This document shows positions 25,164 to 47,417 of a stretch of 64,000 nucleotides of DNA, piece after piece. Made by a program: the position numbers and the translations under genes. The DNA comes from an uncultured Acidobacteriota bacterium (GTDB taxonomy: Bacteria; Actinomycetota; Acidimicrobiia; Spongiisociales; ZC4RG35): assembly GCA_963789135.1 (NCBI GenBank), contig CAWBJJ010000002.1:23736-87735 (forward strand), in the 5' to 3' direction. How positions within the stretch are numbered: position 1 is the first letter of the stretch; every line of letters begins with the position of its first letter. The notes under the pieces are model-generated. The model was not told where the DNA came from, searched no databases, and saw only the letters and a program-made list of their open reading frames with translations.

Positions 25164-25302
25164 GTCCTCCCACCGCTCGGCATCCGGTCCCCCCGTCCGG
25201 CGAGCCCGACCCCACAGCCCGGCCGTTCGCACCTTCCCGGTAGCTGCCATCCCCCAGCCGCCTTAGCCTTCGCCTGGCGCTTCGGCGCCACGGAGGTATT
25301 CG

Positions 25303-26778: not shown

Positions 26779-26953
26779 CGTCGGACGATGTCATACGTTT
26801 CACGACTTCTTTCCGTGAGCGTATGCAATTTCGCAGGAAGTAAGTGATACGGAGCCTCTTCGCTCGACGCGGTCCACTTGCGCGTGCCACGCGTGGATCG
26901 GGTATTGCTCGGCGTCCACGCGCTCAAGCCAATTCATCGCGAGGAGGAGTCAC

Positions 26954-27538: not shown

Positions 27539-27603
27539 AGAAAGGAAGAAGGAGGAAGGGAAGAAGGAAGGAAAGGAAGAAGTCTTCATCCTTCCTCCTT
27601 CCC
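27537..27603. terminator. 46-nt pure purine tract plus complementary pyrimidine arm between convergent genes
   Basis: Positions 27537-27582 contain only A/G, followed by TCTTCATCCTTCCTCCTTCCC. The 19-mer CTTCATCCTTCCTCCTTCC is shared with 15205-15223. Confidence 0.55.
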
Positions 27604-27646
27604 ACTTCAGTGCTCGCGGCCCCGCTCGCGCCGCAGCGCTCTTCCT

Positions 27647-28501: not shown

Positions 28502-28541
28502 ACCTCCTGCTTGACTAACGACTAACGACCAACGACTCACG

Positions 28542-29744
28542 TTACTGATCGCTGGTGATGGTCTTGAGCACGTCCAGCGATGCCCCCTCGGTTCGATCGG
28601 CCTTCCGCAGTGTGAGCATGTCGCGCGCGTGCAAACCCTCCACGCGCAGGCGCCAGCTCTCATCGCGCAGCCGGAGGTATTCCTCCGCACTGGCGACGAT
28701 GGGTTGATGTTGCTCGGGTACACGGTCGAGTGACTTCAGACGGAGACGAACGGATTGCAGCTCCGGAAGGATGGTGCCGTTGATGACCTGGGCGAGCGCG
28801 TCGGCATTGATCCCGCCAAGCTTGAACTGCTCGACGGCTTTGTCGTACGCGCCGGCCGTCCGGCTTTCGAATGCCACGACACGCGCAATCTCCGGTTTCA
28901 CGTCCAGGTATCCGCGACGGGGGACGGCAAAGACCGCGGCAACGACCAGCGTGACCACGAGCGCGACGCTGCTGCGCAACGCCGGCGCCTTGCGCACACC
29001 GATCCCCGCCGTCAGGGCGAGGCCGCAGACGAGTCCCATCATCAGGCCGTGCGGTGCGCGCGCGCCGGACAGCTCGCCTGTCGCCACGCTGTACAAGAGA
29101 AAGATCACGGCGCTCGGCACGAGGGCCTTGATGGCCGTCAGCGGAACCGACACGCGCGACGGCTGTAGCAGTCCCCAGATCACCGACGCCACGAACATGC
29201 CGTAGACCCCGAAAATTGCGCCGGACGCGCCGACGCTGATCGCCATGGGATCGGCGGTCAGACTGGCGGCGTTTGCCACGACTCCCGATCCCACGTACAC
29301 GGTGGCGATTGCCAGCGGACCGGCGAGCCGTTCCACGAGCAGGCCCACCATGACCAGCCCGACGAGGTCCATCAGCAGGTGCAGCAGGCCGCCATGCACG
29401 AACAGCGACGTGAGGAGCCGCCACCATTCACCGTGCGTCGTTCGCGGACCGACGCTGGCGCCCCACGCGACGAGTGTCTCGGGATCGGAAACGGAACCAT
29501 CCGCGAAAACCATCTGGAAGAACATCAGCACGTTCAGGAGGACGATGCCGGCCGTGAACACCGGCAGACGAGTTCGCTCGCGCAGCGCGTCGAAGAACGG
29601 ACCCGACTGCACGTGCGCGCGGTGCGTCAGACGCACGGCCGATTGCAACGCCGGCCCAGCGCTGCCGAGCAATCGTCGTCGCTCGTCCGGCGACATGACG
29701 TACAAAGCGAACGCGCCAAGCACGAGAAGTACAAAAATGAACAT
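28542..29744 (-). CDS. rhomboid-family intramembrane serine protease with a C-terminal soluble extension
   Basis: Rhomboid motifs EWWRLLTSLFVHGGLLHLLMD and GASGAIFG are present. Confidence 0.85.
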   Translation of the reverse strand: MFIFVLLVLGAFALYVMSPDERRRLLGSAGPALQSAVRLTHRAHVQSGPFFDALRERTRLPVFTAGIVLLNVLMFFQMVFADGSVSDPETLVAWGASVGPRTTHGEWWRLLTSLFVHGGLLHLLMDLVGLVMVGLLVERLAGPLAIATVYVGSGVVANAASLTADPMAISVGASGAIFGVYGMFVASVIWGLLQPSRVSVPLTAIKALVPSAVIFLLYSVATGELSGARAPHGLMMGLVCGLALTAGIGVRKAPALRSSVALVVTLVVAAVFAVPRRGYLDVKPEIARVVAFESRTAGAYDKAVEQFKLGGINADALAQVINGTILPELQSVRLRLKSLDRVPEQHQPIVASAEEYLRLRDESWRLRVEGLHARDMLTLRKADRTEGASLDVLKTITSDQ

Positions 29745-30040
29745 TGACGGCTACCCGGAACAACTCAAGACGTATGCCGGCAGACAGGAGCGTTTCAGGC
29801 GGGTTTTCGGGCTTTGGAGGTGTGTCAGAAACGTGAAAATTTCAAGACTCGCGACCCGGTGGACGACTTTGTAATAGCTGGTTCAGGCTGTCGGTTCCAG
29901 CCACAACGTCTTCGATGTACTTCGAGCCAAGAATGGTTAGCGAGGAATGGCCTCGGTCCGGGGTGTTCGCTTGTCAAAAGCGACAGGAGCACAGGAGGTA
30001 AGGAGCAATTCCGAAAACCGGCAGCAGGCCTGTTGGCAAA

Positions 30041-31292
30041 TTACTTGGCGAATACGTTCGTCAGATCCGCCACGCTGATTCCGAGTGTGGCGCGCGCGAG
30101 TCGATCGAGCTCGGCCTCAGGGCCGGTGAAGTGAAACGTGCGATGAACGTGTGTGTATCGCTGTTGCGGTGCGAGATTGAGCGCCGGCGATGACGTCTCG
30201 AGCTCGTAGAACGGACCGAGCGGCGGTTGGCCGGGCGCCGGAGGCCCGTCGTTGTAGCTGTTGATAACGTCGCCCTTGTACGGCTCGCGCTGAATCTCCC
30301 ACATCGAATTGACATACCTGGTCGCATCGGCAGGCCGCGTGTATTGCACCAGCGTCAAGACGCGCGCCGTCGCGTCGTAGCTTCCCGCCACGTCACGTGC
30401 GCGCGATGGGGACAAGCCAATCTTGCTGCGATGCTGGCCGTCGCCTCGAAAGAGAATGACCGCCTCGGTGATCTTGAGACGGTCGCTCGGCACCTTGCCG
30501 AAATAGGCGTCGTTGACGACGGGACCGAGTGCCGACTCCGGACCGGCAGTGAAAGGGATCGCAATCGTGGTGTCCGGCGACGGGTTGAACATGCCGAGTA
30601 TCCACACCGAGATCAGGCCCGACTCCGGCTGCCATGGGGCGCTGCCGACATTCACGACCGTATTGGCGGACTCGTACGCCACCATCCGAACGCCACGACC
30701 CGGAGCCGTCCCCAGGTGCATGGCGGCATCCTCCGCTTTGACGAGACGCACCGCACGGTCCACTTCGATCTCGAGGGTGGTGTTCGAATAGTTCGCGAGC
30801 GTCATGCGTTTGGTGAAGCGCACCGCGTCGGACGATCGCTCGCGACTGTCCCATGCGCCCCAATCGATCGGCTCCGGCACCTGCCAATGCGCCAGATCGA
30901 ACGGGTCGCCCGCCTTGAAGTACAAGGAGTACCTGTCCCCCTTCGGGACCCAGCCAGAAGCGATCTTCACCGCCGAACACGTTCATGTGCGGCTGCCGCT
31001 GACCGCCGGCCACCGCAGCGCGACCGATCCACCCGAAGCTGAGCCCGTCTGCACCGCCCGTGGTGCTGGTCATCACTCGACCCTGATAGCCAGGGGTGAC
31101 AGCCACCTGTGCGCCGGACGAATCGGACAGCACGACCACCTCGGTGTGCTGGCGAAGGAAGGCGAGATCGGAGGCGAATCGGTCGTAGGCTGGCGCGAGC
31201 GCCGTCGGCTCGGTCCTGCGGCAGGCGGCGATCGGAATCGTCGCCGCGGCCATCGCCAGTATGAGAGCGGCACGCGGTCCAGGGCATCGCAT
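30041..31292 (-). CDS. conserved hypothetical lipoprotein, one frame break at the C5 run 30937-30941
   Basis: The N-terminus (lipobox IAAC; ...GGEDRFWLGPEGGQ) is in ORF 30393..31292. It continues as YSLYFKAGDPFDLAHWQ... in ORF 30041..30970. Confidence 0.65.
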
Positions 31293-31321
31293 CGCGCGAT
31301 GATTCTATGTCCCCTTTTCCG

Positions 31322-31586
31322 TTATTCGTGGCGCAACGCCGTCGTTGGATTGAGGCGCGCGGCGCGCGTGGACGGGATCAGCCCGGATCCAACAAGGTGA
31401 ACTGCACGAGTTCGTGCGAGGCTCGAACCGGCAGCACGCGCAGCAGGACCCGATCCACGAGGGTGAAGATCGCCGCGTTTTGCGCCGATGCCCAAGGCAA
31501 GTGAAAGGACGGCTATCGCAGTGAAGGTGGGCGACTTACGCCGCGCGCGGAAGGGGAGGCGTGCATCGGCGACGGGGGTTGGCCAT
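31322..31586 (-). pseudogene. ADOP/FtsX permease relic: first ~55 codons joined to the last ~17 codons, plus two homopolymer frame breaks
   Basis: With 1-nt corrections it reads [62 protein letters not shown]..., then ...GLIPSTRAARLNPTTALRHE*. Confidence 0.65.
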
Positions 31587-31808
31587 GGTCCCTGGACGGA
31601 GGGTGACCGTAGCCGGTTGAGCGACGCCGCAGTCATCCAGGAATTTGGAGAAAAAAATCAGGCGGTGGCCCGGCTTTCTGAGCGCTTGACATCGCAGTGG
31701 CTAACCCTTAGGGTAGCGCTAATTTACGTCTTTTTTTCGGGGCCCGACGCAACTCCCGGCAGTTGCACGGCTGTTGTACGTCTGTTGGACGTTGGAGGAG
31801 AGAGAGAA

Positions 31809-34800
31809 ATGGCATCACACGTTCAGCGTTGTATGAGTGCTCTGATCTCCGCCGTACTTGTGGCCTTCCTGGCCGGCACTGTAGCCGATGCCCAGGTTCT
31901 ATACGGTTCCATCGTTGGGAACGTGACCGACTCGACCGGTGCGGCGGTGCCTGGTGCCACCGTCACCATCGAGCAGGCGGAAACGAAACTCACACGCGAA
32001 CTGGTGGCCGACGCCGCCGGTGCCTATCACTTCACAGCGGTGCCGTCCGGAACCTACAGCGTGACGGTGACGATGAACGGCTTCCGATCGTTCAGCCGCA
32101 AGGATGTCCCGGTCACGCTCAACTCCGTGGCGCGCGTTGACGCGAAATTGGACGTCGGGCAGCTGGCGGAAACGGTGAGCGTCTCCGCCGAGTCGCCGAT
32201 TCTTCAGACCGACCGGGCGGAAGTTCGTGCCGAACTGAAGTCGCGCGACCTGACGGAGCTGCCGGTTCCCATCGGCCGCAATTATCAGCAGCTGTTCAAG
32301 ACGCTGCCCGGTTTCACGCCGCCGGCCGACGCGCACTCGATTCCGTCCAACCCGTCCCGTGCCCTCGTCTTCAACGTGAACGGCTCGAGTGACAGCTCGA
32401 ACAACACGCGGATCGACGGTGTCAGCACGACGAACGTCTGGCTGCCGCACGTCGCGGCGTACGTGCCGGCCCTCGAATCGCTCGAAACCGTGAACGTCGT
32501 GACCAACAGCTTCGACGCGGAGCAGGGACTCGCGGGCGGCTCGGCGATCAACGTGCAGATCAAGAGCGGCACGAACCAGCTGAAAGGGTCGGCGTTCGAG
32601 TACTACACCAACGAGCAGATGCGCGAGCTCAACTACTTCGCGCCAGCCAATGCGACAAAAGGGGACTGGGCGTACCACCAGTACGGAGCGACGCTCGGCG
32701 GGCCGATCCTGCGCAACAAGCTGTTTTACTTCGGCAGCTACGAGAGCACGCGCGACAAGCAGAATGCGACGCGTACGATCTCAGTGCCCTCCGCAGCGCT
32801 GCGCCGCGGCGACCTGTCTGGGTCGGTGAATCCCATTTACGATCCGGCGACCGGCACGGCAAACGGAACCGGGCGGACGCCGTTTGCGGGCAACATCATT
32901 CCCCAGGATCGCATCGACCCGATTGCGGCGAAGATCATCGGCCTGATGCCGATGCCGAACGTGCCGGGAACGGCGGAGAACGACAACTACTTCGCCGCCG
33001 CGCCGTTCGAGTTCAACCGGTGGACGCTCGACACGAAGGTGAACTGGAACGCCACATCGAAGTTGAACATCTTCGGCCGCTACAGCCACCTCGACTTCTG
33101 GACGTTCAACGAAGCGGTGTACGGCGACACGCTGCAGGGAATTCCAATCGCTGGCGGCAACCCCGGAACGGGTCAGGGCTACACAGCCAACTTTTCGGCG
33201 GGCGGCACCTACGTGATCTCGCCCAGTCTCGTCGCCGACGCGCACTTCGGCTACGTGCGGATGTACACCGACGTCGCGCACACCGATATCGGCCAGAACA
33301 AAGGGCAGTCGCTGCTCGGGATTCCGGGTCTCAACGGCTCGCGTGCGTTCGAAGGGGGCATGCCCGTCTTCGACTTCGAGACCTTCCAGGACATCGGGAT
33401 CACGGAGCTGTACATGCCGTACACCCGCAACGACGATCAGTATCAGACCGTCGTGAACGTCAACTGGATGAAGGGAAAACACAACGTTCGCGCCGGCACC
33501 GACATCTATTTCCAGGCGCTGAATCACCTGCAGCCGGAAACCACGGGCGATAACTATGGCGCGCGCGGCGGCTTCCGCTACAGGAGCGGTCCGACGCTGC
33601 TGAGCGGAGGGCCGTCGGCCAACCTCTGTATAACGCATGGGCGTCGTTCCTTCTCGGCTATCCCGAACAGCTCGGCCGCCTGAACCTCACGGAAGCGCCG
33701 TACGCGACGCGGATGCAGAGCTACAGCTTCTACGTGCGGGATCAGTGGCAGGTGACGAACCGGATGACGGTTTCGTTCGGCACGCGCTACGAGTACTTCC
33801 CCATGCCGACGCGGGACGGTCGCGGTCTCGAACGCTACAACCCCGAGACGAACCTGATGGAGATCGGCGGCATCGGCTCGGTGCCGATGGACCTCGGCGT
33901 CAGCATGGAGAAAGGGCTGTTCGCGCCGCGCGTCGGGGTGACGTTCCGCGCGTCGCCGACGATGGTCCTGCGCGGCGGGTTCGGGATCACCAACGACCCG
34001 TACTCGCTGGCGCGGCCGATGCGCACGAATCATCCAGTCCTTCTCAACCTGATCGTCAACGCGCCGAACACGTTCTCCTGGGCCGGCCGAACGGCTGATG
34101 GCGTGCCGCCGGTGCCGAACGCCGATTTCGGCAACGGCATCATCACGATTCCGTCGAACGTCAGCGCCGTCACGATTCCGAGTGACTTCAACCGCGGCTA
34201 CATCAAGTCGTGGAATGCGGCGATTCAGAAAGAGCTGCGCTGGGGGTTCGTCGGCGAAGCGGCGTACGTCGCGACGCGTCAGATCGATCAGCTCGGGGTG
34301 CCTCGAACTGAACTGGTCGCCGATCGGCGGCGGTCAGGCCGCGTCGGCAGCTGAATCAGCGGTTCGGACGGACGGCGCAGACCCAGCTCGTCGCGCCGGT
34401 CGGCGACACCAAGTACGACGCGCTGCAGACACGCCTCGATCGACGCTTCTCGAACGGGATTCAGCTCGGTGTCGGCTACACGCTGTCGAAAGCGACGGGG
34501 ATCGCCGGGGCACCGCGCAGCGACGGCGTGCCGCGCATCATGATTCCCGAGTTCTACCACCTGAACACGGCGCTGCAGTCGTTCGACCGCACGCACAACC
34601 TGCAGATCACCAACCTCACCGAGCTGCCGTTCGGTCCGGGCAAGCGCTGGCTCAATGGCGGCGGCGTGGTCGCCGCGATCGTCGGCGGGTGGCAGATCAA
34701 CAACATCGTCAGCATCACGAGCGGCACGCCGTTCGACATCACGGCATCGAGCACGTCGCTGAATGCGCCGGAGAGCTCGCAGCGCGCCGACCAGGTGAAG

Positions 34801-35171
34801 TCGGACGTCGAGATTCTTCACGGCATCGGCCGCGGCAACGCCTGGTTCGACCCGTTCGCGTTCAAGCCGGTCACCGAGCCGCGGTTTGGCACGGCGCCCT
34901 GGGGCGCGGTGCGCGGACCGGGTTACGCGAACTGGGATTTGGGCGTGTTCCGGCAGTTCAACCTGCCGCGGAACATGCACGTGCAGTTCCGGTTCGAAGC
35001 GTTCAACGTGACCAACACGCCGCACTTCAACAATCCCAGTGACGCGGGAGAAACGTGTCCAACCTGCAGCTGAACCCCGACGGCACCGTCCGCAACCTGA
35101 ACGGCTTCAGCGAGATCAGCAGTTCGTTCGGTGAGCGGCAGATGCGGGTCGGCCTGCGGTTGGGCTGGTAG
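31809..35171 (+). CDS. TonB-dependent receptor with N-terminal CarboxypepD_reg domain; four frame breaks (about 33627, 34298, 34341, 35048)
   Basis: A signal peptide is followed by YGSIVGNVTDSTGAAVPGATVT. Fragments 31809..33683, 33713..34354 and 34528..35073 join colinearly. The terminal ...ERQMRVGLRLGW* ends at 35171 in a fourth frame. Confidence 0.8.
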
Positions 35172-35202
35172 GAAGAAAGATCGAAGAGTCGAAGGAAGAA
35201 AG

Positions 35203-35234
35203 GGGGACAGTCGACCGGTGACTGTCCCCTTTTT
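35203..35234. terminator. canonical intrinsic terminator, usable bidirectionally (A-rich 5' flank, T5 3' flank)
   Basis: GGGGACAGT-CGACCGGTG-ACTGTCCCC-TTTTT sits between the convergent TBDR and amidohydrolase genes. Confidence 0.8.
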
Positions 35235-35235
35235 C

Positions 35236-36438
35236 CTACAGGCCCAACAACCGCGCGGCGTTCCCGTTGTAGACCTTCTGCAGGATCCCCTCCGGTAGTC
35301 CAATCCCGTAGATCTGCCAGCGTCCCTGCGGTGGTACGGGTGCAGGGGCGTAGTCGAAATACTCGTCCTCGGTCTCGAGGAACCGGAAGTAGATCTCGTA
35401 CAGCTGGGTGCCGAAGATCTGTTGCGGCGTTTGTGTGCCGTGCGGCACGGCGTCGGTCCCGAACAGGATCCGGTCCTGATAGCGATCGAAGAACCGCCGC
35501 GCGGTGCGCGGTTGGCGTCCCAGTTCACCGATCCGTGCGCCTATCTCGACGTGCATGTTCGGAAACTTGTCGAGACATTCCGAAACGTAGCCGAGGTCCT
35601 CGGCGTTGTGGCCGACGTGCAGGGCGACGAAGGTCGTCTTCGGGTGACGCGCGAACATCCGGTTTCTGGCCTCGAGCAGCGCGCGGTTCGAGGGGAAGTC
35701 GCGGCCGTGGAACGACCAGTCGGGATGGTTGTTCAGCTCCTCGAAACGCTCGTTGAACCGATCGGTGGGAAGGAAGAACGCCTCGGGATCGCTGACGTGA
35801 ATGGCGACGGGCATCTTCTTGCCGGCACATGCTTCCCACATCTGGTCGAAACGCTTGTCATCCACCGCGAGCAGCGGACCTGACGTCACCTTCTCGCGCA
35901 GGTACAGACCGAGAGTTTTCAGCACCTTCAACCCTCGCGCGCCGGCACCGTGGGCGCGCTCGATGTCGGCCGCCTGCTCGCGAGCGTAGTTCGCGTCGTT
36001 GATCTGCGCATATCGCGGCTCCGTGAACGTGACGAAGCGTTTGGGGTGGGCCGTCTGATACTGCGCGATGCTCTGCTCCAATCCCTTGCCCACGCCCCCC
36101 GTCAGGTTCACCATCGTCTGCAGGTTCACCTGGTCCATCACTTTGAGGAGCTCTGCCGCCGGCGCGCGGAAAGTCGTCTCCTCGCCCTGCGGCACGCCGG
36201 ACACGCCGGCGCGGAATCCCAGGTGCGTGTGGAAGTCGATCACCGGATGTCGCGCCCGCGCCACCTTCGTCTCGGCAACCTTGAGCATGCTCTTCGGCTG
36301 AAAGTCTTTGAGGTCGAGAGGCGTCGGCGGTCTCGGTGGCGGATTCTGCGACGTCTGACGCCCCTCGCCATGAACCGCCCGCACCATCGGCACCGACGCC
36401 AGCAACGAAAGCCATTGACGGCGGGTCACATCACTCAT
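35236..36438 (-). CDS. Tat-signal amidohydrolase-family (metal-dependent hydrolase) protein
   Basis: N-terminus is MSDVTRRQWLSLLASVPMV. HTH and HVSD metal-binding motifs are present. A GAGGA RBS precedes ATG 36438. Confidence 0.8.
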   Translation of the reverse strand: MSDVTRRQWLSLLASVPMVRAVHGEGRQTSQNPPPRPPTPLDLKDFQPKSMLKVAETKVARARHPVIDFHTHLGFRAGVSGVPQGEETTFRAPAAELLKVMDQVNLQTMVNLTGGVGKGLEQSIAQYQTAHPKRFVTFTEPRYAQINDANYAREQAADIERAHGAGARGLKVLKTLGLYLREKVTSGPLLAVDDKRFDQMWEACAGKKMPVAIHVSDPEAFFLPTDRFNERFEELNNHPDWSFHGRDFPSNRALLEARNRMFARHPKTTFVALHVGHNAEDLGYVSECLDKFPNMHVEIGARIGELGRQPRTARRFFDRYQDRILFGTDAVPHGTQTPQQIFGTQLYEIYFRFLETEDEYFDYAPAPVPPQGRWQIYGIGLPEGILQKVYNGNAARLLGL

Positions 36439-36461
36439 GTTCTAATCCTCAGCGGGTGATC

Positions 36462-36644
36462 CTACACGAGCGCCTTCAACTCCCAACCTCCAAATCCAAC
36501 CCCGGCGATATGGCCCCCCATGCCATCGGCAACCATGAGCACGGCTGGGCCTTCCGACTCCCCCGAGCTTTCCGGATAGATGGTGTCTTCGTTGTTCTTG
36601 CGCACCATGCCCTGGTGGCTGGCGGCGGCCCAGATGTACTTCAC
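36462..36644 (-). pseudogene. pstP: 5' fragment (about 48 codons) of the PP2C Ser/Thr phosphatase gene pstP, truncated at the block junction
   Basis: Translation MKYIWAAASHQGMVRKNNEDT...LMVADGMGGHIAG matches a PP2C N-terminus. It then runs into 12 unrelated codons and a stop. It overlaps the fhaB stop by 4 nt, as in an operon. Confidence 0.75.
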
Positions 36645-37051
36645 CGAACCTCCATCACCGTCTTGCCGACCTGGATGGTGTCTCCCCTTCGCATGGTCGT
36701 GGGGGCTGTGATCCGGCGGCCATTGACGTAGGTCCCGTTGGTGCTCCCCAGGTCGTGGAGTACCAGCCCATTATCCGACGCCACCAGCCGCATGTGGAAC
36801 TCGGAAGCGTAGGGATCGTCGAGGAGCATGTCGGCCTCGGCCGACCTGCCGAGGACGGTGACGTCCCGCACTTCGATTTCCAGGCCCTGCTGTGTCTCGG
36901 AGCGCACCACGACCACCTTCGAGCCCTCCCGGCGCCGACGTCGCGCCGAGATCCCGAGGTGTGAACCTATCGCTCGCGCCACCTGCCAAACGAAGAGATA
37001 AACCAGGCCAAGAAAGATGATCCGGAGGAGGGCGAGAATCAGATCGGGCAT
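36641..37051 (-). CDS. fhaB: FHA-domain protein FhaB/FipA (N-terminal TM helix plus FHA)
   Basis: The 136-aa ORF contains the FHA signature GRSAEADMLLDDPYASEFHMRL...GSTNGTYVNG. Confidence 0.85.
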   Translation of the reverse strand: MPDLILALLRIIFLGLVYLFVWQVARAIGSHLGISARRRRREGSKVVVVRSETQQGLEIEVRDVTVLGRSAEADMLLDDPYASEFHMRLVASDNGLVLHDLGSTNGTYVNGRRITAPTTMRRGDTIQVGKTVMEVR

Positions 37052-37054
37052 GGT

Positions 37055-37705
37055 TCAGGGCTCACGCAACCGGAAGCGGTGGCTGCCGAAGGTGATGCTC
37101 GCTCCCTTTTCCACCTGTCGGCCGTTTCTCGCGACCGGTGAGCCGTCGAGGATGGTCCCGTTGGCCGATCCCAGGTCCTTCAACCAGGTCGCACCCTCTG
37201 CTCGCCAGACGAGTGCGTGGTTGCGGCTCACGTCGTCGTAGGGGAGCACCACGTCGGCTTCTCTGGAACGGCCGATCACTGCGCGGTTGGGCCCTATCTC
37301 GAACTCGGCCTCTCCCGCGACCAAGCGCGCCCATGGCGGGATTCTCCCTGGGACGACGGAAGGAACACAGGTGAATTGGCCCGGCGACACCCTATCTGAG
37401 GTCTCGATGAGCACGGTCGGCGGCCCTTCGAGACGGAGGCCGGCCTCGGCGGCATGCTCTGACAACGCCGCCTCGAGCTGGCGCTGCAGTCGCGTTGGAT
37501 CGAGGTCGAGGTCTCCGGGATTGAACGTGAGCAGGAACCGGTTGGAGGTGGCGGGGCCTGTCGGGTGCTGGTAGCTCGTCAGATCGGCCTCGCGGGCGAT
37601 CCGGCCCGCCATCTCAGAGGGATGGATTCGACCCGAGAACACACGTCCGGTGGTGCCTTCGAAAAGGCGCTCGAGGCGGCGTTCGAGGCTCCTGGCGAGG
37701 CTCAT
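37055..37705 (-). CDS. fhaA: FhaA (DUF3662 N-domain plus C-terminal FHA domain)
   Basis: N-terminus is MSLARSLERRLERLFEG.... The C-terminal FHA segment is IGRSREADVVLPYDDVSRNHA...GSANGT. Gene order is fhaA-fhaB-pstP. Confidence 0.85.
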   Translation of the reverse strand: MSLARSLERRLERLFEGTTGRVFSGRIHPSEMAGRIAREADLTSYQHPTGPATSNRFLLTFNPGDLDLDPTRLQRQLEAALSEHAAEAGLRLEGPPTVLIETSDRVSPGQFTCVPSVVPGRIPPWARLVAGEAEFEIGPNRAVIGRSREADVVLPYDDVSRNHALVWRAEGATWLKDLGSANGTILDGSPVARNGRQVEKGASITFGSHRFRLREP

Positions 37706-37788
37706 TCGGTGGAAGGTTACGGTCAGTCGGGGATATGGAGGCCGACTACCGCAAGTATCCGAGCAGGGTTACGCTTCACAGCCGTTAC

Positions 37789-37874
37789 GGGCGAGTGGCG
37801 GAATTGGCAGACGCGGAGGATTCAGGTTCCTGTGATCGCAAGGTCGTGGGGGTTCAAGTCCCCCCTCGCCCACC
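37789..37874 (+). tRNA. tRNA-Leu (anticodon CAG), long variable arm, CCA encoded
   Basis: Hand fold: acceptor GGGCGAG/CTCGCCC, D-arm GCG/CGC, anticodon loop TTCAGGT, T-loop TTCAAGT. The C-run appears one nt short for a 5-bp T stem. Confidence 0.85.
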
Positions 37875-37958
37875 AAGGACTGACGGTTTTCCCCGCTGGT
37901 CCCGCCTACCGCACCGGCCGCAGAAGGGCATCGATGGTCTCCCCCGAATTCTCGAGAT

Positions 37959-38957
37959 GTGATGCTTGACACCCCACGGCCCAGGAAACGTGTCGCCGCC
38001 CGTTTCGTCTGGCCGTTGCTGATCTCAATTGCGGCGATAGCCGCGATCGCCCTCTCCGGCTCGGGGACAGACGCTCGCGCCGAGCTCGAATACCTGGACG
38101 CGGTGCAAGAGGAAGCAGTCGCCCTCTCCTCCAAGGGCACTGCTCTCAGCGGTGTGGTCTCGCGTCTCTCGATGATCGACCGCACCGAACTGGTGACAGT
38201 CATCGACGGCCTCCGCGCCGATATCGCCGCAGGGCTGGAGCTGGCCGAAGAGGCGCCTCCATCGGAGACCTTGTTCGCGGTCAATGCTCTGCACAGGCAG
38301 GCCCTGGCGGCCTGGGAAGCCGGGATCAGCGGCTTCGGGTCGGGACTACTCGCCGCCGCCGACGACCCCACCAGCGAGGTCGTCGTCGACAACATCGCAA
38401 ATGCCCTGGGGGAGCTGCGCGCGGGCGACCGCCTCTACAGCGACCTGGTGACGGAGTTGGAACGCGAGGAGGTGCCGGATCCGGCATCGCCAATGCCCGT
38501 TGTGGTGCTCATGCCGACCACGGGAGGTCTCACCAGCCTGGCTCAGGCCTATGTGCTCGCGGCCCGGTCGCCCGAGAGCACCCTGGCACTCCGTCCCGGG
38601 CTCGCAGTGAGCCAGGTGGTGTCAGAGCCGGAGTGGGAGGTGAGCCCTGAGGATGTCGTGATCGTTCCCAACACCGAGACGATGACGTTCAATGTCGTGG
38701 TCTCGAATCTGGGAAATGTGATCAGCCCGGCGGTGAGTCTCAACTTCGAGCTCACCACCGAGGAGGAAGACCCACTCGTCCTCGAACTCCCGGTGCCTGC
38801 TCTCGAATCCCAGCAACAGACCACCGTCACGTTCCCTGACATCGAGGTGAGCGGTGGAACGGCCTACGAGGTGACCCTCACTCTGGTCGGGGTGCAGACC
38901 GACGTGAACGCCGATGACAACGCCCTCACGGTGCCATTCACTGTGAGCGAAGGTTGA
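37959..38957 (+). CDS. hypothetical membrane-anchored protein with a CARDB-like C-terminal domain
   Basis: An N-terminal TM helix is followed by a helical middle region. The C-terminus reads FNVVVSNLGNVISPAVSLNFELTT...VTFP. Confidence 0.6.
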   Translation: MMLDTPRPRKRVAARFVWPLLISIAAIAAIALSGSGTDARAELEYLDAVQEEAVALSSKGTALSGVVSRLSMIDRTELVTVIDGLRADIAAGLELAEEAPPSETLFAVNALHRQALAAWEAGISGFGSGLLAAADDPTSEVVVDNIANALGELRAGDRLYSDLVTELEREEVPDPASPMPVVVLMPTTGGLTSLAQAYVLAARSPESTLALRPGLAVSQVVSEPEWEVSPEDVVIVPNTETMTFNVVVSNLGNVISPAVSLNFELTTEEEDPLVLELPVPALESQQQTTVTFPDIEVSGGTAYEVTLTLVGVQTDVNADDNALTVPFTVSEG

Positions 38958-38994
38958 GGCCGCTCCACGGTCGCCCGGTAGCATCCGTCGGCCC

Positions 38995-40242
38995 ATGATC
39001 GACCACAGGCTGCTCAGAGACGACCCGGAGTCAATCCGGGAATCGCTGCGCCGACGGGGGTCCGATATCGACCTCGACAAGCTGATCGACCTCGAAGCCG
39101 CCACCAGGGCCCGGCGTCAGGAAGCCGAGGAGTTACGGGCCCGGCAGCGAGAGGCGGGGCGGCTCATTGCTTCGTTGGGCGGAGCCGAAAAGGACTCGGC
39201 GATCGCCGAGGTGGCCGAGTTGGCGGCCGCGGTGAAGGAAGCATCCGGGGAGGCCGATCGGCTCAGCGCCGAGGTCGACCTCGCGCTCCTCGACGTGCCC
39301 AACCTGGTTGCTGCCGATGCCGCAGATGGATTCACCGACGCCGACAACGTCGAGATCAAGAGGGTGGGGAGCCCCCGGTCGGAAGGGACCGATCATGCGA
39401 CTCTCGGCGAGAGCCTGGGCATCATCGACACCGCCAGAGGGGTCAAGGTCTCGGGCAGCCGTTTCGCCTATTTGAAGGGCCTGGGGGCTCTCCTCGAGCT
39501 GTCTTTGGTGCGATGGGCCATGGACAACCTCGTGGAATCCGGATTCACCCCGATGATCCCCCCGGTCCTGGTCCGTGAGGAGGCCCTGGAGGGAACCGGT
39601 TTCTTTCCCGAGGCGAGGGAGCAGGTCTACGAGGTCCCGAAGGACGAGTTGTTCCTCGTCGGAACCTCAGAGGTGCCGCTGGCGGCCTATCACGGGGACG
39701 AGATACTCGATTCGGACCAGCTCCCCCTCCGATATGCCGGGTTCTCGACTTGCTTCCGCCGGGAGGCCGGCACTTACGGCAAGGACACCGCCGGGATCTT
39801 CCGGGTCCATCAGTTCGACAAGGTGGAGATGTTCGTTTTCTCCGGGCCCGAGCAGTCGGCGGAGGAGCACGAACGGCTTCTCGCGGTGGAGGAGAGCCTG
39901 GTCCAGCAGCTCGATATCCCGTATCGGGTCGTCAATGTCGCCGCTGGCGATCTCGGAGCCTCGGCGGCCAAGAAGTACGACATCGAGGCCTGGTTCCCCG
40001 GTGAACAGGCATATCGGGAGATCACTTCGTGCTCCAACACCACCGACTACCAGGCTCGGCGACTCAAGGTGCGAGTCCGCGGTGAGGACGGGAACCGGGT
40101 GGTGCACACCCTCAACGGGACCGCGTGCGCGGTGGGCCGAACCATCCTCGCCCTTATCGAGAATCACCAGCAGGTCGACGGGTCGGTGGCGATCCCGGAG
40201 GCGTTGCGTCGCTACACAGGGTTCGACCTGATCGAGCCGTGA
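38995..40242 (+). CDS. serS: serine--tRNA ligase
   Basis: The 415-aa ORF has a coiled-coil N-arm and class II motifs (FRREAG, GTACAVGRT). Confidence 0.95.
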   Translation: MIDHRLLRDDPESIRESLRRRGSDIDLDKLIDLEAATRARRQEAEELRARQREAGRLIASLGGAEKDSAIAEVAELAAAVKEASGEADRLSAEVDLALLDVPNLVAADAADGFTDADNVEIKRVGSPRSEGTDHATLGESLGIIDTARGVKVSGSRFAYLKGLGALLELSLVRWAMDNLVESGFTPMIPPVLVREEALEGTGFFPEAREQVYEVPKDELFLVGTSEVPLAAYHGDEILDSDQLPLRYAGFSTCFRREAGTYGKDTAGIFRVHQFDKVEMFVFSGPEQSAEEHERLLAVEESLVQQLDIPYRVVNVAAGDLGASAAKKYDIEAWFPGEQAYREITSCSNTTDYQARRLKVRVRGEDGNRVVHTLNGTACAVGRTILALIENHQQVDGSVAIPEALRRYTGFDLIEP

Positions 40243-40871
40243 GCGAGGTTTCCGACCCGATATTCGCCCGGATCGCGGCACGCTACGACAGGATCAACCG
40301 GATCCTCTCCCTGGGCCAGGAACGGGCATGGCGGAAACGAGGGATCGACATGTTGGGACCAGGGCACGCCCTCGACCTGGGGTGTGGCACCGGCGACTCC
40401 GACTTCGGTAGCCGACGGGTTGTGGGCCTGGACCCGGTGATAGAGATGTTGGCGTTGAGCCCGGTGCGGGAGCGGGTCGTTGGAGTCGGGGAACGTCTGC
40501 CGTTTCCGCACGACAGCTTCGACGGGGTCTTCAGCGGTTTCGTTTTCCGCAACCTCACCTCGGTCGACCAGACCATCACCGAAGTGGGCCGTGTCCTCCG
40601 CCCCGGCTCGGCGGCAGTGGTCGTCGACCTCACCAGGCCCCGCAACCAGGTACTCAAGGTGTTGCACCGGATGGGAACTGCTGTGGTCCTCCCGCTCGTG
40701 GGGATGTTGTTCGCCGGGGCGCCCAAGGAGTATTGGTACCTGCATCGCTCGCTCGACTCCCTGCCGCCACCGGAGGTGCTGTTCGAAGGCAGGGACGTGG
40801 TGGTGGAAGAGGTGTGGCGGATGGGGGTTTTCGGATTCGTCTACGGAGCGAGATTGCGCAAACCCGCTTAG
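40239..40871 (+). CDS. class I SAM-dependent methyltransferase (UbiE/MenG-like)
   Basis: GTG 40239 overlaps the serS stop (GTGA). Motifs ARYDRINRILSLGQERAWRK and LDLGCGTGD are present. Confidence 0.75.
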   Translation: MSEVSDPIFARIAARYDRINRILSLGQERAWRKRGIDMLGPGHALDLGCGTGDSDFGSRRVVGLDPVIEMLALSPVRERVVGVGERLPFPHDSFDGVFSGFVFRNLTSVDQTITEVGRVLRPGSAAVVVDLTRPRNQVLKVLHRMGTAVVLPLVGMLFAGAPKEYWYLHRSLDSLPPPEVLFEGRDVVVEEVWRMGVFGFVYGARLRKPA

Positions 40872-40879
40872 CGGGTTTG
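40859..40879 (+). terminator. hairpin CAAACCCGC-TTA-GCGGGTTTG spanning the methyltransferase stop codon
   Basis: A 9-bp stem read directly, with a T-rich 3' side. Confidence 0.45.
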
Positions 40880-40984
40880 CGTTCTGCGCATTACGTACCA
40901 CGTGATACGGCGCCCGTGAACGGGCGCATGATCGTGCCCCCGCCGTCGGAACGATGAGCCACCGTCGACGACGGCCGCCGGCTC

Positions 40985-41078
40985 GGGTCAGGCCGCCCTG
41001 CGTCACCCGGAGCAGACCGCTTAGGGCTGCTTCCTTCCGGATCTGACCCGGTTCGCGGGGCTCCGCCGCGCAGGACCC
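40985..41078 (-). ncRNA. ffs: signal recognition particle RNA (small bacterial SRP RNA / 4.5S type); ends approximate
   Basis: The minus strand reads ...CCGGGUCAGAUCCGGAAGGAAGCAGCCCUAAGC..., nearly identical to the conserved helix-8 motif GGUCAGGUCCGGAAGGAAGCAGCC. Flanks pair (GGAGC/GCUCC, CUGCG/CGCAG, GGGUC/GACCC). Confidence 0.75.
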
Positions 41079-41254
41079 GACCGTCAACGCCGCGTGTCCA
41101 TCGTCAGGGCCGGAGCCCCGGTGTCACGCCATCCCTCGGGCGGGGAATTCGGCCCCGCATGTAGAGGATTTCGGGTACAGGGCACCCCTAGTGCCCCACC
41201 TAGCACGATCGGGTTTCAGGCTACCCCCGCGGGCACTGTTACCTTCCCCTGCTC

Positions 41255-42418
41255 ATGGCCCTCGCCGCCTTCGGCCCCACTTTTCCGCGCCTCTTCGTCG
41301 CCGGTCTGCTCGAGGAGATCTCTTTCGTCCTCATGATCCACTTCCCGGGTTATCTGGACGACCTGGGTGTGACCGAGTCGAAGATCGGGCTCCTCTATGC
41401 GGCGGCCGCCGTCCTCGCCCTTCTCATGCGGCCGGCCCTGGGACGCCTTCTCGACTTGACCCACCGCCGCACCGTCCTCCTCTTCGCCGGGGCGGGGAAC
41501 ATCGTGTTCATGCTGCTCATGGTGGCGACCACGGTGTGGGGACCGGTGTTGTGGGTCATCTTCTTGGCCCATCGAGTCCTTCTCATCTCCTTGTTCACCA
41601 CCCTGCTCACCTACGGCGCCGATTCGATTCCGGCCAAACACCGCACTCAAGGGCTGGCCTTGTTCGGTCTCTCCGGATTGGTCCCGATCGCCATCGGCGG
41701 TGTTCTCGGTGACCTGGTGATCGAGGTGGCCGGCTTCGACGGGCTCTTCATCCTCTCCGCGGCAGCGATGCTCGGATCCTGGCTGACCGTGTGGACCCTC
41801 CCCGTTCTTCCGATCCTCGGCCGGCGTCCCCGGCGCGGCTTCTGGCATGCCCTGGCGCAACGTGACCTGCTGCCCCTCTGGTGGGTGACGCTGACTTTCA
41901 GCATCGGGATGGAGACGCTGTTCACCTTCACCAGGACGTATGTGGACGAGCGTCAGATCGGGTCGGCCGGCCTCTTCTTCGGTGTCTACGGGGTGACTGC
42001 GGCGACGACCCGGCTCTTCGGCGGAAGCCGTTACGACCGGATGCCGCAACGTCCGGTGGTGGTGGGCTCGATCCTCTGCCTCTCGGTGTGCCTCGGCGTC
42101 ATGGCGGTGGCCGGATCCGCCGTCGTGCTCGTCATCGCCGCCATCGCCGGAGGGATGGCCCATGGCGCCCTGTTCCCGATCCTCTCCAGCCAGGTGGTCA
42201 ATCGGGCCCGCACTGCAGAGCGCGGATCGGCGATGTCGATCTTCACCTCGATCTTCGATTTCTCGCTGCTGATGGCTGCGCCACTGGTGGGGGCCGCCAT
42301 CGACGGGTTCGACTACCGGGTGGCTTTCGGCGCGGTGTCGATCGTCATCGTCCTCGGAGCGGTCGTCTACGCGATCTGGGACCGACGCCTGGCGTTGGTG
42401 GAAGCCGGGGTCGGCTGA
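41255..42418 (+). CDS. MFS transporter
   Basis: The 387-aa ORF has about 12 hydrophobic segments. Confidence 0.8.
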   Translation: MALAAFGPTFPRLFVAGLLEEISFVLMIHFPGYLDDLGVTESKIGLLYAAAAVLALLMRPALGRLLDLTHRRTVLLFAGAGNIVFMLLMVATTVWGPVLWVIFLAHRVLLISLFTTLLTYGADSIPAKHRTQGLALFGLSGLVPIAIGGVLGDLVIEVAGFDGLFILSAAAMLGSWLTVWTLPVLPILGRRPRRGFWHALAQRDLLPLWWVTLTFSIGMETLFTFTRTYVDERQIGSAGLFFGVYGVTAATTRLFGGSRYDRMPQRPVVVGSILCLSVCLGVMAVAGSAVVLVIAAIAGGMAHGALFPILSSQVVNRARTAERGSAMSIFTSIFDFSLLMAAPLVGAAIDGFDYRVAFGAVSIVIVLGAVVYAIWDRRLALVEAGVG

Positions 42419-42889
42419 TCACCTCCGGTCGCCGAAGAACCCCGTGAGGAGCGCAGCGCACTCGTCTGCCATGACCCCGTCCACCAGTTCGACGCGGTGG
42501 TTGAGGCGCCGGTCCTGGGGGATGTTGTAGAGGGACCATGCGGCTCCGGCCTTGGGGTCGGCGGCGCCGTACACGATCCGTTGCAGGCGGGAAAGCACCG
42601 CCGCTCCGGCGCACATCGGACACGGCTCGAGGGTGACCACCAGGGTGTGCCCTTCGAGACGCCAATCTCCCAGGTCCCTGGCCCGTCGGGAGAGGACAAG
42701 CATCTCGGCATGGGCGGTCGGGTCCGACAGCTCTTCACGCCGATTGTGGTCCACTGCAACCACAACTCCGTCACCATCGAGGAGTACCGCTCCTACTGGC
42801 ACATCCCGGGATCCCGCTGCTTCGGCACCCGCTTCGAGCGCCAGTTTCATGGCCGGCAGGTAGTCGGAGGTCGATATCGGCTGGGACAC
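42419..42889 (-). CDS. tadA: tRNA adenosine(34) deaminase
   Basis: CMP/dCMP deaminase zinc motifs HAEM and PCPMCAGA are present. The start is GTG. Confidence 0.88.
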   Translation of the reverse strand: MSQPISTSDYLPAMKLALEAGAEAAGSRDVPVGAVLLDGDGVVVAVDHNRREELSDPTAHAEMLVLSRRARDLGDWRLEGHTLVVTLEPCPMCAGAAVLSRLQRIVYGAADPKAGAAWSLYNIPQDRRLNHRVELVDGVMADECAALLTGFFGDRR

Positions 42890-42935
42890 GTCGTGGATTA
42901 TCCTCTACTCGCCTGCCAGCTCTGGCAGGCTTCCA

Positions 42936-43026
42936 GGAGGGATCGCATAGTCCGGTCTAGTGCGCGGCACTGGAAATGCCGTTGGGGGTTTACGCTCCCT
43001 CGAGGGTTCAAATCCCTCTCCCTCCG
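42936..43026 (+). tRNA. tRNA-Ser (anticodon GGA)
   Basis: Hand fold: acceptor GGAGGGA/TCCCTCC, anticodon stem CGGCA/TGCCG with loop CTGGAAA, long variable arm, T-arm GAGGG-TTCAAAT-CCCTC. Confidence 0.88.
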
Positions 43027-43061
43027 CGATACCGGTCTCGGCGGTCAGGCCGCCGGCCCTT

Positions 43062-43152
43062 GGAGGGGTCGCATAGTCCGGTCTAGTGCGCGGCACTCGA
43101 AATGCCGTAGGGGGCTGACGCCTCCTCGAGGGTTCGAATCCCTCCCCCTCCG
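43062..43152 (+). tRNA. tRNA-Ser (anticodon CGA)
   Basis: Same architecture as the preceding tRNA, with anticodon loop CTCGAAA and T-arm GAGGG-TTCGAAT-CCCTC. Confidence 0.88.
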
Positions 43153-43176
43153 CTCCCTCCTACGAGAGGATTCCAC

Positions 43177-44070
43177 TTGAGCAGCGACACGGAGCGCACC
43201 GGAGCCCGGCACGCCCGGCCGCTAGGCCTCGCTCTCGGGCTGATCGTTGCCTACGCAATCGTCGAGGTGGCAGCGGCGATCTTCACCGGGTCGTTGTCGC
43301 TCCTCTCCGACGCAGGGCATATGGGCACCGATGCTCTCGGACTTGGAATGGCCCTCGCCGCCGCCCTCACCGCACAGGGTGCGGCACGAAGAGATCGCCA
43401 GACCTACGGGCTCTACCGCCTGGAGATCATGGCGGCCGCCGCCAACTCCATCCTTCTGCTGTTGGTCGCCGCGTATGCGATCTTCGAAGGCGTCCGTCGG
43501 CTGTCGGATGCTCCGAGCCTGGACGCGGGGCCGATGCTCGTGGTCGGGCTTGGCGGCCTGATCGTCAACATGGTGGCGGCCCGGATCCTGCGAGCCGGCT
43601 CTGCCGAGAGCATGAATGTCGAAGGCGCATACGCCGAGGTGATGGCCGACTTTCTGGGGTCGATGGGCGTGATCGCGGCCGCCCTGGTCTATCTCGCCAC
43701 CGGGTGGGCCTACGCCGACCCACTGGTGGCGATCGCCATCGCGTTCTGGATCATCGTGCGCGCCGTCGCCCTCGGCCGGAAGGCCCTATCGGTACTGGTG
43801 CAGGCGGCTCCGACGCGGGTGGACCTGGTCGAGTTACGACACGACCTGGCCGAGATCGATGGGGTGACCGATGTCCACGACCTCCACGTGTGGACTCTCA
43901 CCTCGGACATGGATGTGGCCACCGCCCATCTCGTGGTGGCCGATGATGCCGACACTCATGCCGTCCTCCATCGCGCCGGCGACAGTCTCCGGGAGCGTTG
44001 GGGTATCGCCCACGCCACCTTGCAGGTCGAGCCGGAGAGCCACCGGGAGTGCGTCGAAGAGACTTGGTAG
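43177..44070 (+). CDS. cation diffusion facilitator family transporter (CzcD/ZitB-like)
   Basis: The 297-aa ORF has 6 TM segments, the motif LLSDAGHMGTD, and a C-terminal cytoplasmic domain containing HDLHVW. Confidence 0.88.
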   Translation: MSSDTERTGARHARPLGLALGLIVAYAIVEVAAAIFTGSLSLLSDAGHMGTDALGLGMALAAALTAQGAARRDRQTYGLYRLEIMAAAANSILLLLVAAYAIFEGVRRLSDAPSLDAGPMLVVGLGGLIVNMVAARILRAGSAESMNVEGAYAEVMADFLGSMGVIAAALVYLATGWAYADPLVAIAIAFWIIVRAVALGRKALSVLVQAAPTRVDLVELRHDLAEIDGVTDVHDLHVWTLTSDMDVATAHLVVADDADTHAVLHRAGDSLRERWGIAHATLQVEPESHRECVEETW

Positions 44071-44135
44071 GCCCCACGCGCGTGGACGCGGGCAAGGACC
44101 CGCCGGTGTTAGAAACGTGGGCGACTTAACACTTG

Positions 44136-44165
44136 TTGACGGGACTACAAGTCGTGTCGTACGCT
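44136..44165 (+). promoter_or_regulatory. candidate promoter: -35 TTGACG, 18-nt spacer, -10 TACGCT
   Basis: Read directly. It lies immediately upstream of the operator-like palindrome and about 70 nt upstream of the SBP start. Confidence 0.4.
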
Positions 44166-44169
44166 CGGG

Positions 44170-44183
44170 TTGAAACGTTTAAG
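44170..44183. promoter_or_regulatory. LacI-family operator candidate TTGAAACGTTTAAG
   Basis: Near-palindrome around the CG centre. A closely similar site lies at 52674-52687, and an extra half-site ACGTTTCGA lies at 44188-44196. Confidence 0.5.
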
Positions 44184-44232
44184 TCAGACGTTTCGAGAGC
44201 GCCGCGGGGCGCGCCTGATGAGGAGGATGTGC

Positions 44233-45600
44233 ATGAAACTGTTTTCGCGACGGTGGGCGGTGGTCCTTGCGGTGATCGCTCTCGTTGTCGTTGCATGTGG
44301 CGGTGGGTCGGAATCGACCACCACCGTCGCAACGGATGACGGTGCGACCACGGCCCCACCAGGGACCGAGGCTCCTGCCACCACAGCCCCAGCTGCCGAA
44401 CCGGTAACCCTTTCGTTCCTGATCGATGACAATCAGGTGACGATCGACTCGGCCGAGGCCCTGACAGCCGCGTTCACCGCAGCAAATCCAAACATAACGT
44501 TCGAGATCGAAACCCGGCCCGGCGGTGGGGAAGGCGACAACATCGTCAAGACCCGTCTCGCCACCGGGGAGATGACCGACATCTTCTGGTACAACACCGG
44601 CTCCCTGTTCCAGGCGCTCAATCCGACGGAGACCTTGGTCCCGATCACGGATGAGCCCTTCGTGGGCAACATCGTGGATTCGTTCCTGCCGACGGTCACC
44701 GCCGAGGAGAACGTGTACGGGGTGCCCTCGCAGACAGCCATGGGCGGTGGCGTCCTCTACAACAAGGCGATCTACGAAGATCTCGGCCTGAGCGTGCCCA
44801 CCACCTGGGACGAGTTCGCGGCGAACAACGACGCGATCCTCGCCGCGGGGATAGCCCCGGTCGGTCAGACCTACACCGACACTTGGACGTCGCAGCTGTT
44901 CGTGCTCGCCGACTACTACAACATCCAGACTCAAGACCCGGACTGGGCGGAGAAGTACACCAACAACGAGGCGAAGTACGTCGACCAGCCAGCGTTGGCT
45001 GGGTTCGAGCGCCTGCAGCAGGGATTCGAAGCCGGCTGGTATCAGCAGGACTTCGGATCGACGACCTTCGACGACGGGCTCAACCTCTTGGCGACCGGCG
45101 AGATCGCTCACTATCCGATGTTGACTTTCGCCCTCGGGGCGATCGCCACGAACCATCCGGACGCGGTCCAGGACATCGGGTTCTTCGGTCAGCCCGGCAA
45201 CGACGCCGCGACCAACGGGACCACGATCTGGATGCCGGCAGGCATCTACATCGCGGGGACGAGTGAGAACCAGGATGCGGCCAAGCAGTTCCTTGCGTTC
45301 GTTGCCTCGGTCGAGGGAACAGAGGCCTTGACTGCGGCGGTGGCGCCTCAAGGCCCGTACATGATCGAGGGGTCGTCGCTACCGGCGGACACACTGCCGG
45401 CCGTGCTCGACATCCAGGCCTATATCGATGCCGGGAAGACGGCACCGGCGCTCGAGTTCTTGTCACCGATCAAGGGCCCCAACCTCGAGTTCCTCACAGT
45501 GGCGGTCGGTTCGGGGCTCCAGAGCGCCGCAGACGCCGCTGCCGACTATGACGAAGACGTCGTTGCCCAGGCCCAGCAACTCGGCCTCCCTGGTTGGTGA
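44233..45600 (+). CDS. ABC transporter sugar-binding lipoprotein (family 1 SBP)
   Basis: GAGGAGGA RBS precedes ATG 44233. The lipobox is VVVACGGG. Confidence 0.85.
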   Translation: MKLFSRRWAVVLAVIALVVVACGGGSESTTTVATDDGATTAPPGTEAPATTAPAAEPVTLSFLIDDNQVTIDSAEALTAAFTAANPNITFEIETRPGGGEGDNIVKTRLATGEMTDIFWYNTGSLFQALNPTETLVPITDEPFVGNIVDSFLPTVTAEENVYGVPSQTAMGGGVLYNKAIYEDLGLSVPTTWDEFAANNDAILAAGIAPVGQTYTDTWTSQLFVLADYYNIQTQDPDWAEKYTNNEAKYVDQPALAGFERLQQGFEAGWYQQDFGSTTFDDGLNLLATGEIAHYPMLTFALGAIATNHPDAVQDIGFFGQPGNDAATNGTTIWMPAGIYIAGTSENQDAAKQFLAFVASVEGTEALTAAVAPQGPYMIEGSSLPADTLPAVLDIQAYIDAGKTAPALEFLSPIKGPNLEFLTVAVGSGLQSAADAAADYDEDVVAQAQQLGLPGW

Positions 45601-45637
45601 GCCAGCAAACCGAACCCATCTCCAAAGTTGATAGCTT

Positions 45638-45671
45638 GAGCACCGGCGGGGCAGTTGCCCCGCCGGTGCTC
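45638..45671 (+). promoter_or_regulatory. perfect 15-bp stem / 4-nt loop hairpin between the SBP and permease genes
   Basis: GAGCACCGGCGGGGC-AGTT-GCCCCGCCGGTGCTC read directly. Confidence 0.7.
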
Positions 45672-45689
45672 AACGTGAAGGATCGACGA

Positions 45690-47383: not shown

Positions 47384-47417
47384 CCCTCATCAACGCCGTG
47401 ACCATCTAGGAGACTCA

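Follow-up and report, generated by a model that had tools for sequence, protein, structure and literature searches.

A probable assembly chimera between Acidobacteriota-type and Acidimicrobiia-type DNA, joined within pstP on a public metagenome contig

The actinobacterial cluster fhaA-fhaB-pstP-rodA-pbpA-pknA/B lies beside a tRNA-Leu gene, as exemplified by Rv0020c-Rv0014c and leuT in Mycobacterium tuberculosis. Many chimeric contigs arise at shared repeats, such as rRNA operons and IS elements. Inter-genome chimeric contigs in metagenome-assembled genomes (MAGs) are a type of error that the tool GUNC (Orakov et al. 2021), cited in PMC12313526, was built to find.

We analysed a stretch of 64,000 nucleotides, referred to here as the window, in which tRNA-Leu(CAG), fhaA, fhaB and the first 48 codons of pstP follow one another in the canonical order of the actinobacterial cluster. 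Eleven related loci, L001-L011, which we obtained by scanning the GTDB representative genomes with FhaA, carry the whole set, including a pknB with four PASTA domains, whereas the window stops at pstP codon 48 and has no full-length PP2C phosphatase, rodA, pbpA or PASTA kinase. Two further departures from the described cluster are the short FhaA of the window (216 aa) and, in the relatives, a single kinase gene in place of pknA plus pknB. At codon 48 the DNA changes from one bacterial lineage to another, and we assign a probability of roughly 0.85 to the reading that this joint, at 36501/36502, is a chimeric assembly and not biology.

The open reading frame that spans the joint occupies 36462-36644 on the minus strand and reads, from 36644 to 36462, VKYIWAAASHQGMVRKNNEDTIYPESSGESEGPAVLMVADGMGGHIAG, then VGFGGWELKALV, then a stop. 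It comprises 48 PP2C codons (36501-36644), ending the normal PP2C N-terminus at ADGMGGHIAG, followed by 12 unrelated codons (36465-36500) and the stop codon at 36462-36464; all coordinates that an earlier, sequence-only reading of this DNA had given proved correct. Pfam finds no domain left in the 60-aa product. Only its residues 1-48 match the PP2C protein of L001, at 47 of 48 identical positions (97.9%), and this full-length pstP homologue has 235 aa and a PP2C_2 domain. As far as the sequence itself goes, the truncation of pstP in the window is real. Between the stop and the start codon (36436-36438) of the neighbouring amidohydrolase gene lie 23 nt (36439-36461), exactly as measured before. 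The earlier description of that gene as divergently oriented was wrong, as it runs from 36438 to 35236 on the same minus strand as the truncated pstP, fhaB and fhaA.

Nucleotide homology to the right-type relatives ends at window position 36502 or 36500 in all 11 loci, and from about 36498 downward the spacer can be aligned with left-type relatives. The 62 nt that extend from the amidohydrolase start to the end of PP2C homology (36439-36500, minus strand) look like a native amidohydrolase 5' spacer with its ribosome-binding region, that is, like left-type DNA. They align loosely with the native spacers of the left-type contigs L016, L017 and L019, with which they have in common a GGAGGAT ribosome-binding region before the ATG and a TGGATTYGGAG motif lying 2-3 nt from the joint. 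Because the spacer aligns with left-type DNA and PP2C homology ends at the joint, we describe the structure as a clean two-way join at 36501|36502, without filler and with an ambiguity of at most 1-2 nt. A search of the joint for repeats, microhomology and filler revealed no meaningful repeat, no evident microhomology and no filler, and Pfam annotation of the genes nearby revealed no IS element and no integrase or recombinase; the tRNA-Leu gene is 1.3 kb away. The earlier remark that no IS, integrase, tRNA or direct repeat marks the joint is in keeping with these searches. As a separate observation, the spacer 5' of the amidohydrolase gene in the left-type relatives consists of heptamer-like tandem repeats (GGAAGCT, GGCAGCT, GGGAACT), located at 10320-10400 in L016, 9880-9990 in L017 and 9632-9700 in L019. 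The window spacer is a diverged version of this repeat array, with the joint at its distal end.

To the right of the joint, synteny, composition, Pfam and Rfam identify an Acidimicrobiia/Actinomycetota-type chromosome (36502-64000). It carries fhaB, fhaA, tRNA-Leu, serS, an SRP RNA gene, a tadA-like deaminase gene, four tRNA-Ser genes, a sugar ABC transporter, GH78, GH1, LacI, an aldolase-SDR fusion, sigK-rskA and a fasciclin gene. The first genes are intact: fhaB (36641-37051, minus strand) encodes a 136-aa FHA-domain protein that is 95.6% identical to the FhaB of L001, and fhaA (37055-37705, minus strand) encodes the FhaA_N and FHA domains in a protein 86% identical to its L001 counterpart. 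Upstream of fhaA, ARAGORN places the tRNA-Leu(CAG) gene at 37789-37875 on the plus strand. The same tRNA-Leu stands upstream of the FHA gene in the Streptomyces loci L013 and L014 and in L001-L011; it is part of a conserved actinobacterial arrangement and not an integration site. Pfam detects FhaA_N plus FHA, a second FHA protein, an ECF sigma factor with RskA, the fasciclin gene and an Aldolase_II plus SDR fusion in this block. Together with ARAGORN, these hits agree with the actinobacterial hallmarks recognized before (fhaA-fhaB-pstP beside tRNA-Leu, sigK-rskA, fasciclin and the fusion enzyme).

The right block is collinear with L001-L011 over window positions 36502-47611. Across the joint the 11 relatives continue with the rest of pstP, rodA, pbpA and pknB; in L001 these are the PP2C_2 phosphatase, an FtsW/RodA protein, a transpeptidase PBP and a Ser/Thr kinase with four PASTA domains. 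When the L001 cluster proteins were compared with the whole window by tblastn, no pstP C-terminus, rodA, pbpA or PASTA-type pknB was found, and the matches to the kinase were to unrelated kinase domains. An inversion or insertion that displaced the missing parts to elsewhere in the window was considered and rejected, as they are absent from its entire length. The right block also contains a bacterial SRP RNA of the large type (RF01854, 142.7 bits; 40932-41208, minus strand), situated between a ubiE-like methyltransferase gene and an MFS transporter gene, and two tandem tRNA-Ser pairs, at 42936-43153 (GGA+CGA) and 55882-56117 (TGA+GCT), the first of which is close to serS and conserved in L001-L011.

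To the left, synteny, composition and Pfam indicate a Vicinamibacterales/Acidobacteriota-type chromosome (1-36501) with mtnB/D/C-like genes, PD40 and TPR kinases, zwf, mgtE, tctABC, a TonB-type receptor, a DUF6786 gene and a rhomboid gene. The families that had suggested an acidobacterial origin, namely FtsX permeases, a CarboxypepD_reg TonB-type receptor and PD40/TPR kinases, were confirmed by Pfam (the permeases as FtsX/MacB_PCD), which also reported outer-membrane barrels. The first intact gene of this block encodes the amidohydrolase (35236-36438, minus strand; 400 aa; Amidohydro_2, PF04909), whose closest homologues, at 96% (P0001) and 92% identity, are found on contigs L016, L017 and L019. 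Two other proteins, P0251 and P0248, were tried as nearer amidohydrolase relatives with which the left edge might be refined, and proved more distant than L016. The window is collinear with the JGI contig L018 from 2305 to 22779 (96% nucleotide identity) and with L016 from 25265 to 36438 (93%), the latter segment covering the amidohydrolase, the TonB-type receptor, DUF6786, the rhomboid and a TPR protein; L017 and L019 are collinear with it only nearest the joint, over the amidohydrolase and the receptor. Upstream of the amidohydrolase, L016, L017 and L019 carry a hypothetical gene of 315-561 aa and a PP-binding/thioesterase gene, both of which are absent from the window.

The sequence-only reading had also seen relics of ADOP/FtsX permeases on the left side. 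Most of these prove to be either true lineage-specific deletions that relatives have as well or a small number of local frameshifts, and they do not represent general decay. Relatives possess duplicated-FtsX/MacB ("ADOP"-type) permease genes (L018, 13622-16027; L019, 14552-17125) that the window has lost by clean deletions at positions 17211-17449 and 31310-31386; the second deletion is common to the window and L016, and the "relics" are therefore lineage-specific deletions. Two further differences from L018 were noted in this block. At 19879-20355, 477 nt of unrelated DNA take the place of the first 160 codons of a fused TctC-TctB gene that is intact, at 443 aa, in L018; this second abrupt within-gene replacement, which may be real variation or another assembly defect, contains an oppositely oriented ORF (19998-20315) for a receiver-domain (Response_reg) protein of 105 aa. 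At 9177-12018, radical-SAM and Peptidase_M64 genes occupy the site where the 96%-identical L018 has PspC and PadR genes, with putative frame changes near 10235 and 11090 according to a frame model.

Frameshifts specific to the window are concentrated next to the joint. The TonB-type receptor gene (31840-35171, plus strand) is broken by insertions at 33625 (+2), 34294 (+1), 34337 (+1) and 35034-35049 (+8), so that its Pfam pieces, corresponding to profile positions 2-328, 366-561 and 655-816, lie in three frames; an intact homologue of 1108 aa exists in L019. A +1 insertion at 30932 likewise splits the DUF6786 gene into two frames. These five insertion events, seen against both L016 and L019, fall between 30.9 and 35.05 kb, in the final 5.5 kb of left-type sequence. 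No frameshift was found in the roughly 20 kb of window 2.3-22.8 kb compared with the 96%-identical L018, and none in the tested part of the right block. Frameshifts beside the joint would fit a thinning of read support near a contig end, a fit that is suggestive and not decisive; all being insertions, they could equally reflect real pseudogenisation of the receptor and DUF6786 genes. An initial impression of many indels across the left block was discarded, as these were mostly errors in L016 (ENA contig_62449). That contig has many 1-nt indels in coding regions; its TonB-type receptor is split, its amidohydrolase ORF (540 aa) runs together with upstream sequence, and it is not usable as an error-free reference.

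Base composition is the same on both sides of the joint, with a GC content of 0.62-0.66, matching GC1/GC2/GC3 values and a flat GC skew. Signatures of higher order differ. Principal component analysis of tetranucleotides groups the six left 6-kb chunks with L016 and L017, and the four right chunks with L001-L011, without exception. We also scored 1-kb windows with a 5-mer Markov log-likelihood ratio for which the relatives alone served as training data. It was positive (left-type) in 36 of 36 left windows and negative (right-type) in 27 of 27 right windows (37001-64000); the mixed window 36001-37000 was also net negative, and the split extended to regions without any homologue among the training loci. 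This ratio reaches its cumulative maximum, the change point, at 36421. Together with the homology ends in 11 of 11 loci, it puts the break far beyond chance. Synonymous codon usage differs between the blocks by a distance of 3.71, compared with 1.64±0.28 under permutation of gene labels, and none of 5000 permutations reached the observed value; among the threonine codons, for instance, ACC changes from 0.31 to 0.57 and ACG from 0.48 to 0.24. Both of the comparisons proposed in the sequence-only reading, of tetranucleotides and of codon usage, separate the two halves.

Protein taxonomy divides along the same line. The named matches of the amidohydrolase are "Acidobacteriota bacterium" and "Vicinamibacterales bacterium", and those of FhaA and SerRS (the latter at 78-83% identity) are exclusively "Acidimicrobiia bacterium" or "Actinomycetota bacterium". 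Named matches, k-mers, codon usage and synteny all switch at 36501/36502, which upholds the original proposal that an Acidobacteria-like block abuts an Actinobacteria-like block within a truncated pstP; the lineage break is real in the sequence despite the flat GC. Record titles conflict with one another on the right-type lineage. Eight Microflora Danica MAGs with the right-type locus, on contigs of up to 2.6 Mb, are titled "uncultured Acidobacteriota bacterium", and MAG B15T1B8, with the same type of locus, is titled "Acidobacteria bacterium"; L001, L002, L004 and L007-L011 bear Acidobacteriota or Acidobacteria titles, and the equally similar L003, L005 and L006 are titled Acidimicrobiia. This conflict probably reflects inconsistent NCBI naming of a single lineage. 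We considered whether the Acidobacteriota titles mean that there is no lineage break, and set them aside because the named SerRS and FhaA matches, the PASTA-kinase cluster and the composition point to Acidimicrobiia. If the titles were correct, the phylum-level contrast would be smaller, and the joint would remain a break in composition, codon usage and synteny.

Exact-sequence look-up in NCBI and ENA located the 60-aa junction ORF on a single contig of 864,454 bp. The same record contains exact copies of left-block proteins (the amidohydrolase, the TPR protein, MgtE and the aldolase) and of right-block proteins (FhaB, FhaA and SerRS). A contig of this size from a soil-type community implies a long-read assembly; the Microflora Danica catalogue, assembled from Nanopore data with metaFlye (mmlong2; PMC12313526), is the source of the closest relatives and may also be that of this contig. 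Beyond that record, a 120-nt junction string had no match in the GTDB representative genomes, and neither a wobble-tolerant junction pattern searched against JGI metagenome contigs nor a left-spacer 32-mer searched in JGI metagenomes gave a match. Look-ups by exact product for the amidohydrolase, FhaB, the 60-aa ORF and P0121 likewise yielded no contig.

These observations are best accounted for by an assembly error. DNA of two co-occurring soil bacteria of similar GC, a Vicinamibacterales-like Acidobacteriota (1-36501) and an Acidimicrobiia-like Actinomycetota (36502-64000), would have been linked into one 864-kb contig during long-read metagenome assembly; the most likely cause would be a very small number of chimeric reads, perhaps a single one, or a faulty extension at a place where one of the genomes was no longer covered. 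On this view, the "truncated pstP" would mark the point where Acidimicrobiia sequence ends, and the 12 extra codons and stop would arise because the frame continues into the spacer that natively precedes the amidohydrolase gene of the Acidobacteriota. The data show directly that the window is composed of two lineages, where exactly they meet, and that the junction ORF and both flanks occur on one deposited contig; we infer that the joining took place in silico or during library preparation, not in a cell. As a biological feature, the joint is most likely not real.

An assembly chimera is favoured, firstly, because each block consists of core chromosome whose native synteny extends over at least 11-30 kb, with serS, the large-type SRP RNA, five tRNAs and the tadA-like deaminase on the right and zwf, mgtE and methionine-salvage genes on the left. 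It is also favoured because the cut removes a cell-division and signalling cluster that is intact in 11 of 11 relatives, because the joint has no integrase, IS element, flanking or att-like repeat or filler, because the pstP stub is undecayed (47 of 48 residues) and some 20 kb of the left block are free of frameshifts, and because the junction was not found in the GTDB representative genomes or the JGI metagenome contigs. The sequence-only reading had named contig concatenation or a chimeric assembly as the simplest explanation; the former falls on the one-contig record, and a chimeric join within the contig is the part of that statement which is best supported.

Largely the same facts bear on the alternative that the join arose in a cell, by very recent transfer between phyla or by illegitimate recombination, with pstP cut at codon 48; we regard this as improbable. 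Such an event would have brought at least 36 kb of Vicinamibacterales DNA into an Acidimicrobiia chromosome or, in the opposite direction, moved at least 27 kb. It would agree with a junction internal to one deposited contig, with a joint as clean as illegitimate recombination can give, and with the frameshifts in the TonB-type receptor and DUF6786, the outer-membrane-related genes nearest the joint, which might represent decay in a monoderm host. It is harder to reconcile with two blocks of syntenic core DNA, each with essential genes present in single copy (on the right serS, the SRP RNA and tRNAs; on the left zwf and mgtE), with a joint that lacks an integrase, an IS element, a tRNA edge or a repeat, and with the destruction of pstP and detachment of rodA-pbpA-pknB. 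Nor is there a sign of amelioration or of general decay in the left block, whose outer-membrane proteins are of no use to a monoderm host, and the junction is absent from both public collections. About as improbable is the fuller claim that tens of kb of core chromosome from an Acidobacteriota and an Acidimicrobiia were very recently fused by illegitimate recombination in a cell that is alive today, and that the outer-membrane genes next to the joint, the TonB-type receptor and DUF6786, no longer of use, are starting to decay.

A very doubtful proposition is that an ordinary rearrangement occurred within one genome and that patchy databases or mislabelled taxa create the lineage contrast. Equal GC and GC1/2/3 on the two sides and the nine Acidobacteriota-titled MAGs with the right-type locus would suit this explanation, but the tetranucleotide, 5-mer and codon signatures that switch at the joint match two different sets of relatives, and the named SerRS and FhaA matches are all Acidimicrobiia or Actinomycetota. 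Moreover, the right-type relatives carry the PASTA-kinase cluster beside tRNA-Leu, as Streptomyces does, and the left block encodes TonB-type and outer-membrane barrel proteins. Lastly, a concatenation of two separate contigs when the draft genome, MAG or window file was built would suit a joint at which one side breaks off within a gene and the other within a repeat-rich spacer, a common pattern at contig ends, and the failure to find the 120-nt junction string in the GTDB representative genomes, but it is scarcely credible, since the junction ORF and exact proteins of both sides on the single 864,454-bp contig in NCBI and ENA exclude joining at the level of the file.

Under the preferred reading of an assembly chimera, the locus matters as data hygiene and probably not as biology, as two phyla appear to be fused in an 864-kb MAG contig that is publicly available. 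Such a contig would yield false calls of horizontal transfer and a false "loss" of the pstP-pknB cell-division cluster, would add a spurious 60-aa protein to the databases, and could lead to a wrong assessment of MAG taxonomy or quality. It further illustrates that equal GC can hide a chimera which k-mer, codon and synteny tests expose at nucleotide resolution. Were the join real, it would amount to an extraordinary large-scale exchange of core chromosome between phyla.

Compared with known systems, the window resembles genomic islands and integrative elements in having a compositionally foreign block that is sharply bounded some 1.3 kb away from a tRNA gene. It differs from them in that there is no integrase, there are no att-like direct repeats, the edge is not at the tRNA and the cargo is core housekeeping chromosome in its native synteny; both blocks reach the ends of the window, over 36.5 kb or more on the left and 27.5 kb or more on the right, and no second boundary is seen within the 64 kb. 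The likeness to chimeric MAG contigs is closer. Unlike chimeras borne by repeats, the present joint has no visible shared repeat or microhomology, as would be expected if it stems from a chimeric read or a faulty extension. As in chimeric contigs, mobile-element hallmarks are lacking, a gene is cut in mid-codon-run, and taxonomy, k-mers and codon usage switch at one point. The composition of the window changes where its synteny breaks, each flank is collinear with a different lineage, the relatives on neither side have the junction, and both flanks are contained in one assembled sequence.
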